Part shown: piece by piece, positions 21,322 to 60,931 of the stretch
Layout of the letters: every line of letters begins with the position of its first letter
Position numbering within the stretch: position 1 is the first letter of the stretch
Origin: a virus
Taxonomy: Duplodnaviria > Heunggongvirae > Uroviricota > Caudoviricetes
Length of the DNA stretch: 64,000 bases
Virus record (IMG/VR): IMGVR_UViG_3300021256_000061
Direction: 5' to 3' (one strand)
Program-made: the position numbers and the translations under genes
Notes under the pieces: generated by a model
What the model was told of the DNA's origin: nothing
Seen by the model: the letters and a program-made list of their open reading frames with translations, nothing else
Database searches by the model: none

Positions 21322-21353
21322 ATTCTGTTATTTACAGATTTTTCTTCCTGTTG

Positions 21354-21366
21354 GACTATTTATAAA
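21354..21366 (+). promoter_or_regulatory. conserved upstream motif GACTATTTATAAA (class-2 promoter-like element), representative of 9 copies
   Basis: AACTATTTAT(A/T) found 18-60 nt upstream of ATGs at 21385, 27593, 29091, 30437, 36262, 37958, 41900, 49577, 60932. Confidence 0.45.
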
Positions 21367-21384
21367 TTGAACACCGATAAGAAT

Positions 21385-21975
21385 ATGAAAAAGAATACAA
21401 TAAAGATTAATGAAAACACCCTCAGGCAGATTGTTGCTGAGAGCGTGAAGAGGGTATTAAACGAAAGAAGGGGCAGAAATCCGTATGGCTATATGGACTT
21501 TGACCAGGACGCCTATGATAAGTGGGAAAACGAAACACATATACCTCAAGAGGTCATGGAAATGGTGAATCATGTGGCCGAGAAAATCGGTATGGGGTCC
21601 GTGGAGGAAACCGTCGTACATTTGACTAACAGGTGGGGCGAGACAATTGGTTATGGAAAAGGTATCAGCTTAACGCATTGTACGAGCTCGTATGCTGATG
21701 GACCATCCACCGACTATTCGTCCGTATTTGCAAAATGGTGTAAGGGCTTGGGTTTTGAAGAATGTGACTCCCACGGCGATAACGGTATGGATTCTGCGAC
21801 AAACTGGCACGACACCTATTGGACTCACGAATTTGTCTATGAGGGCACCGAAATTTATAATGACGACCTCGAACATTTCGTCCCTTATGATGAGAATGAC
21901 GAAGACGCTTATGCTGAATATTTGGATTATGAGGATGAAAGCATGTATGACGATGACGATGATTACGGATATTAA
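21385..21975 (+). CDS. motif-family protein with acidic C-terminus (196 aa from ATG; ORF track uses TTG 21367)
   Basis: N-terminal IKINENTLRQIVAESVKRVLNE motif; C-terminal DDDDDYGY. Confidence 0.5.
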   Translation: MKKNTIKINENTLRQIVAESVKRVLNERRGRNPYGYMDFDQDAYDKWENETHIPQEVMEMVNHVAEKIGMGSVEETVVHLTNRWGETIGYGKGISLTHCTSSYADGPSTDYSSVFAKWCKGLGFEECDSHGDNGMDSATNWHDTYWTHEFVYEGTEIYNDDLEHFVPYDENDEDAYAEYLDYEDESMYDDDDDYGY

Positions 21976-22002
21976 TAAGGAAACCAAATAAATAATGAAA
22001 TG

Positions 22003-22028
22003 GGCCGCTAAAAACAGCGGCCTTTTTC
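22003..22028 (+). terminator. rho-independent terminator
   Basis: ggccgct aaaaac agcggcc + T5. Confidence 0.6.
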
Positions 22029-22074
22029 TTTACTATATGTTTTCTTTCCTTTATATTTAATAAAAACGTTGAAC

Positions 22075-22821
22075 ATGGTAGAATTGAATAAGATATATTG
22101 TTGCGATGTTCTCGATGGGCTAAGGCAATTGGAGGATAAGAGTGTTGACCTAATAATCACATCACCTCCGTACAACAAGGCTGGATTTAATGGAAAGGTA
22201 AAGAGAACCAAAAACTGCATATGGAATAAAACCATAGATTATTCGGGGGATGTGGATGTTGATTGTATGCCAGAGGATGAATATGAGGCCTGGCAAGTTG
22301 AAATACTTAACGAATGTTTCCGCGTTCTCAAATCTGATGGTTCAATGTTTTATAATCATAAAATAAGGACTAAAAAAAACCAAATATCACATCCAATTGA
22401 ATGGATTGGTAGGTCCAGGTTTAACTGTAGGCAAATAATTACGTGGGACAGGACTAATTCACCAAATCAAGACACTTGTAGATACGTACCCACAACAGAG
22501 CTCATATTTTGGCTGAACAAAACGAATAAAAACCCAAAATTTAAAAGGGCGGATAATGTATTATTCAAAACGGATGTATGGAGACTACCGCCTCAGAAAA
22601 ACACACAACACCCAGCGCCGTTTCCTATTGAAATACCCGACAATATAATCCCATCTGTATCACAAGGGGAACGCATTGTGGTGTTGGACCCATTTATGGG
22701 AAGTGGAACGGTGGCGAGGTCTGCAATAAGACATGGTTGTGACTATATAGGTTTTGAAATTTCAAAAGAATATTGCGACTGGGCGAACGCTGATATAAAA
22801 AACAAAAGGGGGCTTTTTTAG
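22075..22821 (+). CDS. DNA methyltransferase, N4/N6 (beta-class) family
   Basis: Motif IV IITSPPY near the N-terminus and motif I DPFMGSGT near the C-terminus (PF01555-type order); ATG at 22075 (track start 22069 is TTG). Confidence 0.75.
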   Translation: MVELNKIYCCDVLDGLRQLEDKSVDLIITSPPYNKAGFNGKVKRTKNCIWNKTIDYSGDVDVDCMPEDEYEAWQVEILNECFRVLKSDGSMFYNHKIRTKKNQISHPIEWIGRSRFNCRQIITWDRTNSPNQDTCRYVPTTELIFWLNKTNKNPKFKRADNVLFKTDVWRLPPQKNTQHPAPFPIEIPDNIIPSVSQGERIVVLDPFMGSGTVARSAIRHGCDYIGFEISKEYCDWANADIKNKRGLF

Positions 22822-22835
22822 TCCCCCTTGTTTTA
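22806..22835. terminator. bidirectional hairpin terminator between convergent genes
   Basis: aagggggct tttttta gtccccctt flanked by A/T runs. Confidence 0.5.
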
Positions 22836-58501: not shown

Positions 58502-58503
58502 CT

Positions 58504-58872
58504 TTATTCATCTTCTGGCTCGTATAACCAAGTTTCATTTTTAATGTTTTTCTCTAACTCTTCTAAGTCTTTTTTAAGACGCTCGTGGAAGGTTTCCTCT
58601 CCATCGTCGCCACTCAGTAACCAATCAATGCGCTGTGCATATATGTAGGCCTCTTGAAGTTTACGATAACCCTCTTTGAATTTTTCAACAGTCTCGGGCT
58701 TGTAACAATAATAATATTTTGCCCAATCATGTAGATTTCCGTTTTTGTCATAATCCCAAGAATTGTGTTCACGATTGGGTACTTCTACCATATTTTTAAC
58801 AATAACATCTTTCACATCTTCTGCGATACGCTCGATGTGATGTTGCCAATAGTCAAAATGACCGCCACTCAT
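58504..58872 (-). CDS. hypothetical protein (122 aa)
   Basis: ORF. Confidence 0.45.
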   Translation of the reverse strand: MSGGHFDYWQHHIERIAEDVKDVIVKNMVEVPNREHNSWDYDKNGNLHDWAKYYYCYKPETVEKFKEGYRKLQEAYIYAQRIDWLLSGDDGEETFHERLKKDLEELEKNIKNETWLYEPEDE

Positions 58873-59009
58873 TTCTTTTTCTTTTTACGTTTTGCCCTTG
58901 CCTTGGCCCTGGCTTCTGGCGATATATAGCCACGGGATGGCGTGGCAAGACCGCTTCGATAATAAAAAGCTGTAGGGTCGGTGAGAATTTTAACAAGTTT
59001 ATTATTCAT
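58869..59009 (-). CDS. small basic protein (46 aa, Lys-rich C-terminus)
   Basis: MNNKLVKILTDPTAFYYRSGLATPSRGYISPEARAKARAKRKKKK; ATGA overlap with the downstream gene; below ORF-track cut-off. Confidence 0.25.
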   Translation of the reverse strand: MNNKLVKILTDPTAFYYRSGLATPSRGYISPEARAKARAKRKKKKK

Positions 59010-59029
59010 GCTACAAAAGTACAAAATTT

Positions 59030-59065
59030 TTTATAAAAAACAAAGGCCCACCAAAAAGGCGGGCC
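59030..59065 (-). terminator. rho-independent terminator after the TROVE gene
   Basis: ggcccacc aaaaa ggcgggcc (7/8 stem) followed by a T-run on the minus strand. Confidence 0.5.
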
Positions 59066-59083
59066 AATTTATGGAAATCAGGT

Positions 59084-60688
59084 TTATTCCTGAACAAGAA
59101 GCAGTGCTTCCTGACTTAGTGCGGCATTGATGGATTCCTCCATTGATAGCTGCCTGGTCTGGCCAGTCTTTTCATCGACGATGGTCTCTCCTCCGAGGAT
59201 GAGACTGATAACTGCTCCGTCGAAGCCGCTGAACAGATACTGTCCACCCATATCCATGGTAGCAGGTACATCCTTGGATGCTCCAGACCTTCCTGCGCAG
59301 TACCACCAGATGCACTTGAAGTCCTTTACCCACTCGTCGGGGAACTCGGAACGAAGCTTGCGCATCATGGCCTCGTAATTTGACTCCGCTCCGTAAGCAT
59401 TGAACTGCATGTCACTGATTACGATGAGGGTCTGAGGAAAATCCTCAAGAGGAATCTCGGGGTGCTCTCTGCGTGTTTTGACGATAAGGTCAATGAGGCT
59501 CTGGAAATTTGTTCCACCCCATGCTGTGGAGGCATGCCTAATCTGGAACCACTTATCGGTGAAGGAGCCCTTAAGTTCCATCATTCTCGATGTATTGTCG
59601 AACATCGCCACGTGGTTGTGGAAGGCCCCAGTATTCAACTCTGAGAAGTAAATACCGAGCGACACACAAACATCATAGGATGTAAGTCCAGCGGGACCGC
59701 CATCAATGTGGCAGGTCATAGACCCAGAGGTGTCAAGTGCGCAAAGCACGTTGCCCTTAATGCCGCCATCATCCTTCTTCGCGGTCTGAATGAGGTTATC
59801 AAACTGCTTGTCGATAGTTAGCTTCTGAACGAGAGAAGGCTGTGCGTAGCTCTGGCTGAGCTTCATTCCGAGTTCGTAGGCATATCCGTTGAACTTGGCT
59901 ACGGGCTGCTTTTCGAGCCACTTGTAGTAGCTGTCGGTAAGGTTGTGGTTGCTGAGGAACTTTCCACTCACCAAATTAAGAAGTGCCTTACCAGGAATAA
60001 GACTCCAGTTAATCTGATTGTAGAGACCCTTACAGATGTAGGTCTGGAAAGAGTGGGCGAGACCGCTTGACTTGAAGGTACGGTAATCCTCGTAGGTCCA
60101 GCCAGCGAACTTGGCAAAAGCCTTGGCGTCTTCATTGGACTGCTTGGCCCATGGAGTCTTACACTTGCTGATTGCACGGATGCGAGGAAGATACTTCTTA
60201 ACGAGGTCCTTCATGGTATCATCGTTGATACCCTCGGCAATTACCTCGAAGAACTTCTTTCTGTCAAGGCTGGTGTCCATTGAGAGGAGAACCCAGAGGT
60301 CCTTCCACGAACCGACCACGGGGATGAGCCAAAGGTTCCTGTAGAAAGTTTCAGGGTGGAAGTGAGCAACCCAGAGGAGGCGCTTGAACGCTTCATCCTT
60401 GGCGCCCTGTCCGCGCTGAACCTTTTCGGTTGTCTTGCCGTCCCCAATCTTGGTCTGGCGGGTAATCATACGAAGATAGAATGGGAAACGCAGAGCCATT
60501 ATGGGGTCTTCCGCCCAAAGAGTTGCCTGTTCGCTCCAAACGTCGGATATGTCTCGACCGCGAGCTGTTCCAGCGTGTGCAAACTGGTCAATAAGGGCCT
60601 TTCCTGCACTTGCGTAAGAAAGTGCACCATTCTCAGTAAGGGTGCTTCCTGCACCCATCTCATTCTGCTTGATAAAAGAGTTCATCAT
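59084..60688 (-). CDS. Ro60-like TROVE-domain protein with C-terminal vWA (MIDAS) domain (534 aa); DUF2828-type is the alternative
   Basis: About 330-aa helical N-terminal region followed by LCALDTSGSM MIDAS motif (DxSxS) and a vWA-like C-terminus. Confidence 0.5.
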   Translation of the reverse strand: MMNSFIKQNEMGAGSTLTENGALSYASAGKALIDQFAHAGTARGRDISDVWSEQATLWAEDPIMALRFPFYLRMITRQTKIGDGKTTEKVQRGQGAKDEAFKRLLWVAHFHPETFYRNLWLIPVVGSWKDLWVLLSMDTSLDRKKFFEVIAEGINDDTMKDLVKKYLPRIRAISKCKTPWAKQSNEDAKAFAKFAGWTYEDYRTFKSSGLAHSFQTYICKGLYNQINWSLIPGKALLNLVSGKFLSNHNLTDSYYKWLEKQPVAKFNGYAYELGMKLSQSYAQPSLVQKLTIDKQFDNLIQTAKKDDGGIKGNVLCALDTSGSMTCHIDGGPAGLTSYDVCVSLGIYFSELNTGAFHNHVAMFDNTSRMMELKGSFTDKWFQIRHASTAWGGTNFQSLIDLIVKTRREHPEIPLEDFPQTLIVISDMQFNAYGAESNYEAMMRKLRSEFPDEWVKDFKCIWWYCAGRSGASKDVPATMDMGGQYLFSGFDGAVISLILGGETIVDEKTGQTRQLSMEESINAALSQEALLLVQE

Positions 60689-60931
60689 GTTTCAGAAAAC
60701 GTTTTTTTGGTTAAACTTTATTGTTGCCTGCTGTTTGTTTTCTTCAGAAGGTTTTGCAAAGATATATACTTTTTTTTATAATACAAATTTTTTTGAACTT
60801 TTTTTTAAAAAATCGTCTGAGCGTTCTATTCTACATTCTCATCTTATATCTTTATTTACTACAAAAATCATACCAAAACGTTTATTTCTTTTTTATTGTT
60901 AATAGACTATTTATAAGAAAAGTATAAACTA

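Follow-up and report, generated by a model that had tools for sequence, protein, structure and literature searches.

A conserved upstream element of an uncultured phage family as a candidate phage-specific promoter

Does a short sequence that recurs in front of certain genes of an uncultured tailed phage act as a promoter of its own kind and, if so, which factor would read it? The question is raised by a 64,000-nucleotide stretch of viral DNA (Caudoviricetes; IMG/VR record IMGVR_UViG_3300021256_000061), hereafter called the window, for which a sequence-only reading had proposed a second conserved upstream motif, separate from a TGGCAC motif and possibly tied to a sigma factor encoded nearby. 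We searched for this motif as RACTATTTATW (R-ACTATTTAT-W, with the core CTATTTAT) and used 100 dinucleotide-preserving shuffles as the null. The 64-kb window contains 9 exact matches, as against a shuffle mean of 0.31 and a maximum of 3, and none of the 100 shuffles reached 9. Eight of the matches are on the plus strand and one is on the minus strand (27404-27414). The core, which is also the top-enriched 8-mer of the window's upstream regions, occurs 10 times, the tenth copy lying at 20176 inside the variant GTCTATTTATA. In a simple open reading frame (ORF) model, coding sequence takes up 90% of the window; all 10 copies are nevertheless intergenic, in the remaining, non-coding 10%, and all 10 are oriented toward the adjacent start codon, with 2-50 nt between the end of the motif and the ATG. 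When 1-2 mismatches were allowed, we obtained 115 matches vs. 112 expected, that is, chance, indicating that the sites are all-or-none: a site is either perfect or absent.

The proposed motif is thus real, and an equal frequency inside coding sequence, which would have spoken against it, was not what we found. The eight plus-strand positions named in the sequence-only reading were recovered (21354, 27568, 29066, 30409, 36236, 37918, 41840, and 60905), two of them with a correction of one nucleotide (given as 29067 and 36237), while the minus-strand site at 27404-27414 and the variant at 20174 had been overlooked. A further "variant" at 49559-49567 (+), CTATATTAT, did not survive; we do not count it as a site because it lacks both the TATTTAT core and the downstream A-run. 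Two other identities of the motif were ruled out: a repeat or mobile element, since the flanks carry no information, and a signal resembling a ribosome-binding site, since the distance to the ATG varies over 8-50 nt and Shine-Dalgarno (SD)-like sequences are nearly absent (5 of 83 window genes).

Conservation of the motif and the gene families behind it

We compared the window with about 95 related loci, whose proteins are 31-69% identical. In the two loci L004 and L005, where the orthologues of a 548-aa protein (window 36262-37908) are 62% and 56% identical, respectively, and the synteny with DnaJ and sigma is identical, ACTATTTAT is kept before the genes for the 548-aa protein, the FISUMP protein and Amidase_2, among others, and the flanks have diverged. 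Alignment of 13 orthologous spacers 5' of the 548-aa gene revealed that the motif is invariant. Apart from the start codon and two positions of the A-run, only two substantial blocks are conserved in these spacers: ACTATTTAT and, on the opposite strand, a TAnnTTTG-type block that faces DnaJ at 45-50 nt from the motif (its TA is present in all 13, and the full element, CAAAnATA as written, is readable in most).

Within the window clade, 56 sense sites gave the consensus wTT-N13-rACTATTTATw-NN-AAAA, in which C precedes TATTTAT and A stands before the C in 52 of 56; distances from the end of the motif to the ATG span about 8-50 nt, with the main peak at 15-20 nt and another mode at 30-38 nt. Distant clades (548-aa identity 31-45%; GC 24-51%) use ATATTTAT instead (228 unique sites), with A before TATTTAT, and their sites agree with those of the window clade in the peak of ATG distance, in a T-rich element about 15 nt upstream and in the downstream A-run. 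Since the C- and A-preceded variants share this layout, we take TATTTAT to be the family-wide core. Both forms are found more often in sense than in antisense orientation in the related loci (97 vs. 32 for CTATTTAT; 280 vs. 150 for ATATTTAT).

Clustering of 1568 ORFs from the window and 82 loci showed that the motif is a property of gene families. It is present in all 32 members of a 166-aa family, in 30 of 32 FISUMP proteins, 28 of 35 fibre-like proteins, 19 of 24 members of a 382-aa family, 11 of 12 members of a 174-aa family, and 49 of 82 members of the 548-aa family, most of whose other members sit in operons. The corresponding counts are 2 of 29 for DNA polymerase B, 1 of 16 for SNF2 helicase, 1 of 40 for glycosyltransferase, and none for DnaJ (n = 12), SSB (n = 6) and sigma (n = 6). 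The association of motif and gene family has a chi-square of 310 (26 df), a value inflated by the shared ancestry of the sequences. Enrichment, orientation, invariance, conservation, and gene-family specificity of the motif are beyond doubt. A scan of IMG/VR for the extended motif ACTATTTATNNNAAAAT was uninformative, with scattered single occurrences among the matches listed, and we found no prior description in the literature of the sequence or of promoter motifs of huge or jumbo Bacteroidetes phages.

A conserved, gene-facing sequence could also be an operator or activator site, bound by a phage regulator, rather than a promoter core. The MerR-type helix-turn-helix (HTH) protein encoded at 27031-27402 would be a possible ligand, and its gene itself carries the motif. 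In some distant clades (L007, L008, L040, L061, L070, L074, L078, and L083) the motif lies inside a perfect 12-bp palindrome, ATAAATATTTAT, about 20-40 nt 5' of the 548-aa orthologue, as would suit a dimeric regulator; the palindrome could reflect bidirectional use or an extra dimeric binding protein. In the window clade, however, the motif has no palindromic form, its orientation follows that of the downstream gene, as counted above, and the short spacers hold no other conserved promoter-like element. The HTH gene, moreover, belongs to a mobile insertion that is missing at this place in relatives. We regard a regulator site as very improbable.

What do the motif-bearing genes encode? Two adjacent paralogues, 41900-45778 (1292 aa) and 45994-49542 (1182 aa), contain many YadA-head-like repeats (PHROG 25468, E 1e-112) and are probably fibres; relatives of these proteins flank the 548-aa gene in distant clades. 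The AlphaFold model of the 548-aa protein itself (pLDDT 59.8) gave a faint match to lectin-like receptor-binding modules (TM 0.24 or less), and a lectin-like fold is possible. An N-terminal peptide of about 25 aa, I-x-L-T-E-x-Q-L-x-x-I-x-E-x-V-K-K-V-L-N-E, is common to six otherwise unrelated proteins of motif units (the LxE family; gene starts at 21385, 29091, 49577, 60932, 61663, and 62144), and an internal copy occupies residues 192-216 of the product of gene 27593-28501. Speculatively, its L-x-E ending recalls the capsid-targeting and prohead-protease signals of T4-like phages. Upstream regions of the window sort into three motif classes, namely a sigma-54-type element, a host-type -7 element and ACTATTTAT, and replication, repair and chaperone genes carry the first two. 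Based on this partition of the genes we call the motif class late, and probably it is indeed a class of late or virion genes.

Geometry of the sites and the Bacteroidetes -7 element

Besides the scarcity of SD-like sequences, the start codons of the window show a strong preference for A at -13, -12, and -3. Such a preference without SD is the translation-initiation signature of Bacteroidetes (PMC6847099), and from these SD-poor, A-rich starts we infer that the window is part of a huge uncultured phage of a Bacteroidetes-type host. Promoters of Flavobacterium johnsoniae have a -7 element at -12 to -5 (T-12, A-11, T-8, T-7, T-6, G-5), a transcription start site (TSS) 4-5 nt downstream of it, and AT-rich motifs centred at -18 and -28 that are more prominent than any -33 element (PMC6847099). 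With the TA of the phage motif set at -12/-11, the sites read A-14 C-13 T-12 A-11 T T T-8 A-7 T-6 W-5, and AT-rich patches fall at -28/-27 and -20, with a trough at -24. Across 327 unique sites, AT content peaks 15-16 nt (91%) and 8 nt (86%) upstream of the TA and drops to 63% between the peaks. In the same sites an AAA at +5 to +7 after the 8-mer (89-95% A) is anchored to the motif, whether the ATG lies 8-14 or 15-20 nt away. We predicted +1 at motif position +15/+16; an A occupies one of these two candidate positions at all 10 window sites, and the conserved AAA is located there.

The host pattern of T-12/A-11 followed by non-G at -10/-9 is also seen, as TA followed by TT, in 10 of 10 window sites and 56 of 56 close-clade sites. 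The host TTTG at -8 to -5 is absent; the sites read T A T W instead, with -7 always A and -5 A, T, or rarely C. Because the register equals the F. johnsoniae layout, we interpret the motif as an altered Bacteroidetes -7 element in which T-12, A-11, T-8, and T-6 are kept, T-7 is changed to A and G-5 to A/T, and four further positions are fixed.

Such a likeness raises the possibility that the host primary sigma (sigma-ABfr type) reads the motif, alone or with a phage activator or a modification of RNA polymerase (RNAP), and that no phage sigma takes part in recognition. The motif shares with the promoters of this sigma (-7 TAHHTTTG, weak -33 TTTG) the 8-mer at -12 to -5 with T-12, A-11, non-G -10/-9, T-8, and T-6, the AT-rich patches one and two helical turns upstream, the predicted A-rich start 4-5 nt downstream and the short SD-less A-rich leaders that would result. 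The Bacteroidetes-type translation signals of the window likewise point to a host RNAP of that type (PMC6847099). Yet no site has T-7 or G-5: host promoters hardly vary at these two positions (PMC6847099), where the phage motif has A and A/T, respectively. As these are the two positions that the host sigma needs, the motif should make a poor host promoter. The phage sites further differ in having TT at -10/-9 and in adding A-14 C-13 (only A-13 in distant clades), and they are almost invariant, all-or-none, unlike a housekeeping sigma consensus. True TAnnTTTG elements coexist in the genome, where they are separately conserved and stand before a different set of genes. Reading by the host sigma is, in our estimate, improbable.

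The sharp peak of start-codon distances at 15-20 nt could instead suggest a role at the RNA level, as a processing site or translation signal in the 5' leader. For translation in SD-less Bacteroidetes, A-rich elements of the leader at -14 to -11 are important (PMC6847099), and the leaders predicted here from the sequence would be short (about 10-15 nt) and A-rich, with a 5' A-run that would overlap this translation motif. Against such a role, however, the distance varies over about 8-50 nt, including the mode at 30-38 nt, and it is the motif, not the ATG, to which the A-run is tied; the AT-rich patches that recur periodically 15-25 nt upstream of the motif are, moreover, a feature of DNA and promoters. 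No RNA family or structure was detected at the motif, and our search of the window found no tRNA or Rfam element. We consider the RNA-level reading scarcely credible.

About 11 bp hold the information of the motif; some 15 nt upstream there is only a weak W-T-T, and a hexamer at a spacing of 16-19 bp is missing. A scan for canonical sigma-70 promoters (TTGACA / TATAAT) between 20 and 40 kb of the window returned 70 sites vs. 55.6 ± 6.5 expected. Only two weak (9/12) matches overlapped motif sites (20172-20199 and 30397-30426), and in both the second hexamer contained the motif; the scan picked up none of the other motif sites, and the class does not have two hexamers 16-18 bp apart. Closer in layout are the extended -10 promoters of sigma-70, which likewise hold their information in the -10 hexamer plus 2-3 bases directly upstream and for which a -35 is dispensable. 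The upstream bases here, however, are R-A-C and not T-G-n.

Taken together, the motif is very probably a promoter element. The proposal of a second promoter class, one that differs from the TGGCAC class and is probably used at another time, is upheld by orientation, conservation, gene-family specificity and geometry, as far as sequence analysis reaches.

The phage sigma factor and other candidate readers

The window encodes a sigma-70-family factor of 298 aa at 32903-33799 (-), with Pfam Sigma70_r1_2, r2, and r4 above their cut-offs and r3 below; NCBIfam matches to RpoS, RpoH, and RpoD all fall below the equivalog cut-offs. Regions 2 and 4, the -10 melting motif, and the HTH of region 4.2 are all present. 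Contigs of 363-389 kb carry its orthologues (40-66% identity, 280-304 aa), which form a phage-specific clade; the nearest cellular proteins are RpoD proteins of about 37% identity, the sole organism-labelled one coming from a Firmicutes metagenome-assembled genome. Alignment A2 shows that the melting residues, aromatic and basic, are retained in the phage clade, along with the region 4.2 signature E-R-x-R-Q. Two other segments are changed: I-R-Q-A-x-T-R to I-R-R-(E/S)-I-.., and I-P-V-H-M-x-E-T to (R/K)-T-N-N-x-K-T. In Escherichia coli sigma-70, Q437 and T440 read position -12, and H455 and E458 read the extended -10 TG; the latter two are N and K in the phage sigma. Such changes would suit a promoter that carries its distinctive information at -14 to -12.

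The sigma gene belongs to an operon headed by a conserved host-type element, TATATTTG at 36197-36204 (-), whose first base is 31 nt 5' of the start of DnaJ (36173), the first gene of the operon. ACTATTTAT sites are present in loci whose sigma orthologues are as little as 35% identical, and in the window we found no other transcription factor candidate, the MerR-type HTH of the TnpB insertion excepted. This sigma is thus the best available candidate for the reader of the motif. The link is circumstantial, and we see it as an evenly balanced call because the full genome is probably about 390 kb, with five-sixths of it outside the window.

In the explanation that we favour, RACTATTTATW would be the core element of a phage-specific promoter class that drives the fibre-like, FISUMP-domain, 548-aa marker, and LxE-family genes as well as, in relatives, the amidase gene, most of which are probably virion or lysis (late) genes. 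The element would act like a Bacteroidetes -7 element in the same register, transcription would start 4-5 nt downstream on the conserved AAA, and a phage-encoded specificity factor would direct the host core RNAP to it. Host sigma would transcribe the phage sigma gene from its TAnnTTTG operon, and the phage sigma would in turn read the ACTATTTAT genes. On balance we lean toward this explanation as a whole, that is, a phage-specific class with an altered -7 element and the sigma of the window as the best candidate for its reader.

Cascades of this sort have precedents in SPO1 (gp28, gp33/34) and in the RpoD-like sigmas of group 2 jumbo phages (Iyer et al., 2021), with which the present case shares a full-length phage protein of the sigma-70 family, apparently under a host-type promoter, and a separate phage-only consensus before structural genes. 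It differs from them in a consensus unrelated to the SPO1 middle and late ones, a Bacteroidetes-type host, an uncultured family of 150-390 kb and a cognate promoter proposed from sequence. A phage-private promoter class, probably dependent on a phage sigma, is of a known kind; the consensus, its derivation from the Bacteroidetes -7 code and the phage family are new.

The late promoters of T4 represent another model. They consist of TATAAATA at -10, read by gp55 together with gp33 and the gp45 clamp. By analogy, the motif could be a late promoter read by a different phage factor encoded outside the window, such as a minimal gp55-like sigma, possibly with gp33-like and clamp co-activators, while the RpoD-like sigma serves another class. 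The motif resembles the T4 architecture in being a single AT-only 8-mer at -10 that is nearly invariant and has no conserved -35 (PMC7892883), in lying near the start codons of virion genes and in the 6/8 bases at which TATTTATA matches the T4 consensus in the same orientation. Group 2 jumbo phages carry both sigma types, a minimal gp55-like sigma with gp33 and an RpoD-like one (Iyer; PMC7824862), and the TATTTAT core is kept far more widely in the family than the RpoD-like sigma could be traced. On the other side, the central AA of T4 is TT here, so that the motif corresponds exactly to the T4 element read on the opposite strand: TATTTATA is the sense sequence, and sense TATAAATA is in the minority (138 vs. 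263 in the related loci; 1 vs. 6 in the window). The phage sites also have extra conserved bases upstream, A-14 C-13, and AT-rich patches at -19 and -28, suggesting contacts upstream of the -10 region that gp55 does not make. Comparison with PHROGs gave no match to a late sigma or gp33 for any window ORF, and phmmer searches with T4 gp55, gp45, gp44, gp62, and gp43 gave none at E<=10 in 3097 ORFs (window and 95 loci, about 2 Mb), an insensitive search that covers a small part of each genome; in the sampled DNA of the family we thus found no homologue of gp55, gp33, or gp45. We consider a T4-like factor unlikely.

Several points weigh against the explanation that we favour, and the double set of sigma factors in group 2 jumbo phages is one of them. 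The window covers about 64 kb of a genome of about 390 kb, in which another sigma-like factor could exist, and the sigma was traced no further than the nearer half of the family, short of the distant ATATTTAT clades. The sigma retains a canonical region 4.2, yet no -35 hexamer can be recognised at a spacing of 16-19 bp, and with TA at -12/-11 the A at -7 would be unusual for the -10 element of a sigma-70-family factor. Few motif genes have an assigned function: the term late rests on the fibre-like repeats, a weak lectin-like fold, the amidase of relatives and the absence of the motif from replication genes. One motif site (27404) precedes the MerR-HTH/TnpB unit, which holds no virion gene. 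The promoter call, finally, rests on sequence throughout.

Transcription units, other element classes and the phage family

The most upstream site is the variant GTCTATTTATA, in which T replaces the A before C, at 20174-20184 (+), 19 nt 5' of gene 20203-21321 (predicted +1 20189/20190, A). As a side observation, the C-terminal 139 aa of the 372-aa product of this gene are 63% identical to the 151-aa ORF 28588-29043. GACTATTTATA stands at 21354-21364 (+) before gene 21385-21975 (196 aa, N-terminal LxE family; predicted +1 21369/70) and again at 60905-60915 (+), 16 nt 5' of the tightly packed LxE-family genes 60932-61660, 61663-62142, and 62144-63088 (predicted +1 60920/21). Plus-strand copies of AACTATTTATT lie 14 nt 5' of gene 27593-28501 (302 aa; site 27568-27578, predicted +1 27583/84), 14 nt 5' of gene 29091-29837 (248 aa, LxE family; site 29066-29076, predicted +1 29081/82) and 17 nt 5' of gene 30437-30976 (179 aa; site 30409-30419, predicted +1 30424/25). 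The gene of the 548-aa family marker (36262-37908) follows GACTATTTATT at 36236-36246 (+) at a distance of 15 nt (predicted +1 36251/52). AACTATTTATA is found on the same strand at 37918-37928, 29 nt 5' of gene 37958-39892 (644 aa, FISUMP/Fib_succ_major domain; predicted +1 37933/34), and at 41840-41850, 49 nt 5' of the fibre-like gene 41900-45778 with its YadA-head repeats (predicted +1 41855/56), which is followed by the co-directional genes 45812-45991, 45994-49542 (the paralogue), and 49577-50527. Terminator-like hairpins at 22002-22023, 29919-29945, and 39909-39937 close three of these motif-to-gene units, those of genes 21385-21975, 29091-29837, and 37958-39892, respectively.

The minus-strand site, AACTATTTATA at 27404-27414, is divergent from the site at 27568 (+) within one 190-nt spacer. 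It precedes the MerR-type HTH ORF 27031-27402 (123 aa) and the TnpB gene 25790-27037 (415 aa, OrfB_IS605/Cas12f-like), which overlap and together form a unit (25790-27402, -) resembling an IS607/IS605-type insertion. Since the first ATG of the ORF contains the predicted +1 (27399/27398), the real start codon probably lies further downstream. Because the insertion lies directly 3' of a ACTATTTAT site, it may be transcribed from a captured phage promoter.

The sequence-only reading had assigned the motif to plus-strand genes lacking the TGGCAC motif. The second half of this description is borne out: no motif-bearing upstream region contains TGGCAY-N5-TTGC, no TGGCAC-N5-TTGC, as in a sigma-54 promoter (-24 GG / -12 GC), is located within 110 nt 5' of any motif-bearing gene, and the 24 TGGYAY-N5-TTGM sites of the window (1.3 expected) all stand before other genes. 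The first half has to be dropped, as the minus-strand ORF 27031-27402 has ACTATTTAT and the plus-strand helicase gene (16969) has a TGGCAC-type element. The strand bias is an accident of gene layout, and the class is defined by gene function.

The sigma-54-type elements, TGGCAC(G)-N4/5-TTGC(A), are near-perfect and form an array at 600-17000 of the window (e.g., 2715-2729, 8053-8067, and 14128-14142 on the minus strand and 16915-16929 on the plus strand). TGGCAC-N5-TTGC stands 47-54 nt 5' of the helicase gene and of some 20 small ORFs located at 0.6-14 kb, and each element is followed 8-10 nt later by a conserved block, AAGTAWAAAC. We saw no sigma-54 activator (bacterial enhancer-binding protein, bEBP) in the window, and sigma-54-type elements as the main promoter class of a phage would be unusual. 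Two ORFs in this region, 11898-12440 and 12587-12958, have in common a CxxC-rich segment of 65 aa (66% identical) that is zinc-ribbon-like by eye.

Host-type Bacteroidetes -7 elements, TAnnTTTG, precede the DnaJ-sigma operon, SSB, the Ro-like gene and a few others. Minus-strand examples (TATATTTG, TATCTTTG, and TACCTTTG) are at 36197-36204, 60758-60765, 54204-54211, and 41779-41786, before the DnaJ-sigma operon, the Ro-like gene, ORF 53952-54185, and SSB, respectively. The Ro-like gene is part of a minus-strand cluster for RNA repair and tRNA maintenance at 50558-60688, which includes a Ro/TROVE-like protein (DUF2828/DUF7788; 59084-60688), an RNA ligase (54290-56134), a polynucleotide kinase-like protein (52757-53950), a CCA-adding tRNA nucleotidyltransferase (51494-52750), a metallophosphoesterase (57809-58501), and an AAA ATPase (56746-57804), all on the minus strand.

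These element classes might form a three-tier programme, an idea we offer as tentative and rather doubtful: perfect sigma-54-type promoters (TGGCACG-N4-TTGCA) would serve the small-gene array and the helicase, host-type TAnnTTTG elements a middle set including the DnaJ-sigma operon, and ACTATTTAT, read by a phage sigma with rewritten -12 and extended -10 reading heads, the virion genes. To our knowledge, host sigma-54 as the main class of a phage, together with a phage sigma that mimics and does not overlap the Bacteroidetes promoter code, would be unprecedented if true.

How widespread is this system? The 548-aa protein has about 1900 homologues in the protein collection, many on contigs of 270-390 kb, and members of its family occur on no fewer than 579 contigs in IMG/VR, which reach 393 kb, have a GC of 24-51% and come from many environments. 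It matched no entry in Pfam, PHROGs or PDB sequences, and tblastn with it and with a distant homologue gave no match in 50,697 GenBank phage records. Megablast of 14 kb of the window likewise found no nucleotide relative among GenBank phages; the window sequence is also present on a 46-kb ENA scaffold and a Logan contig. Only helicase, DnaJ, and sigma gave matches, all distant, to GenBank phages: the helicase shares 41% identity with its counterpart in Bacteroides phages DAC16-23 and SJC03 (167-179 kb), and DnaJ shares 31% with the one in the Lak Prevotella megaphages. The 548-aa protein is thus a marker of a large, widespread phage family without a cultured member.

For this family, uncultured and mostly unannotated, the motif provides a simple marker of the late or virion gene set, and its exact predicted TSS coordinates can be compared with metatranscriptomes. 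The sites suggest how a phage can arrive at a promoter code of its own, through changes at two positions of the Bacteroidetes -7 element, and a sigma with altered DNA-reading residues is nominated as the reader of that code. If confirmed, the pair of sigma and promoter would be an orthogonal expression switch for the engineering of Bacteroides and Prevotella.

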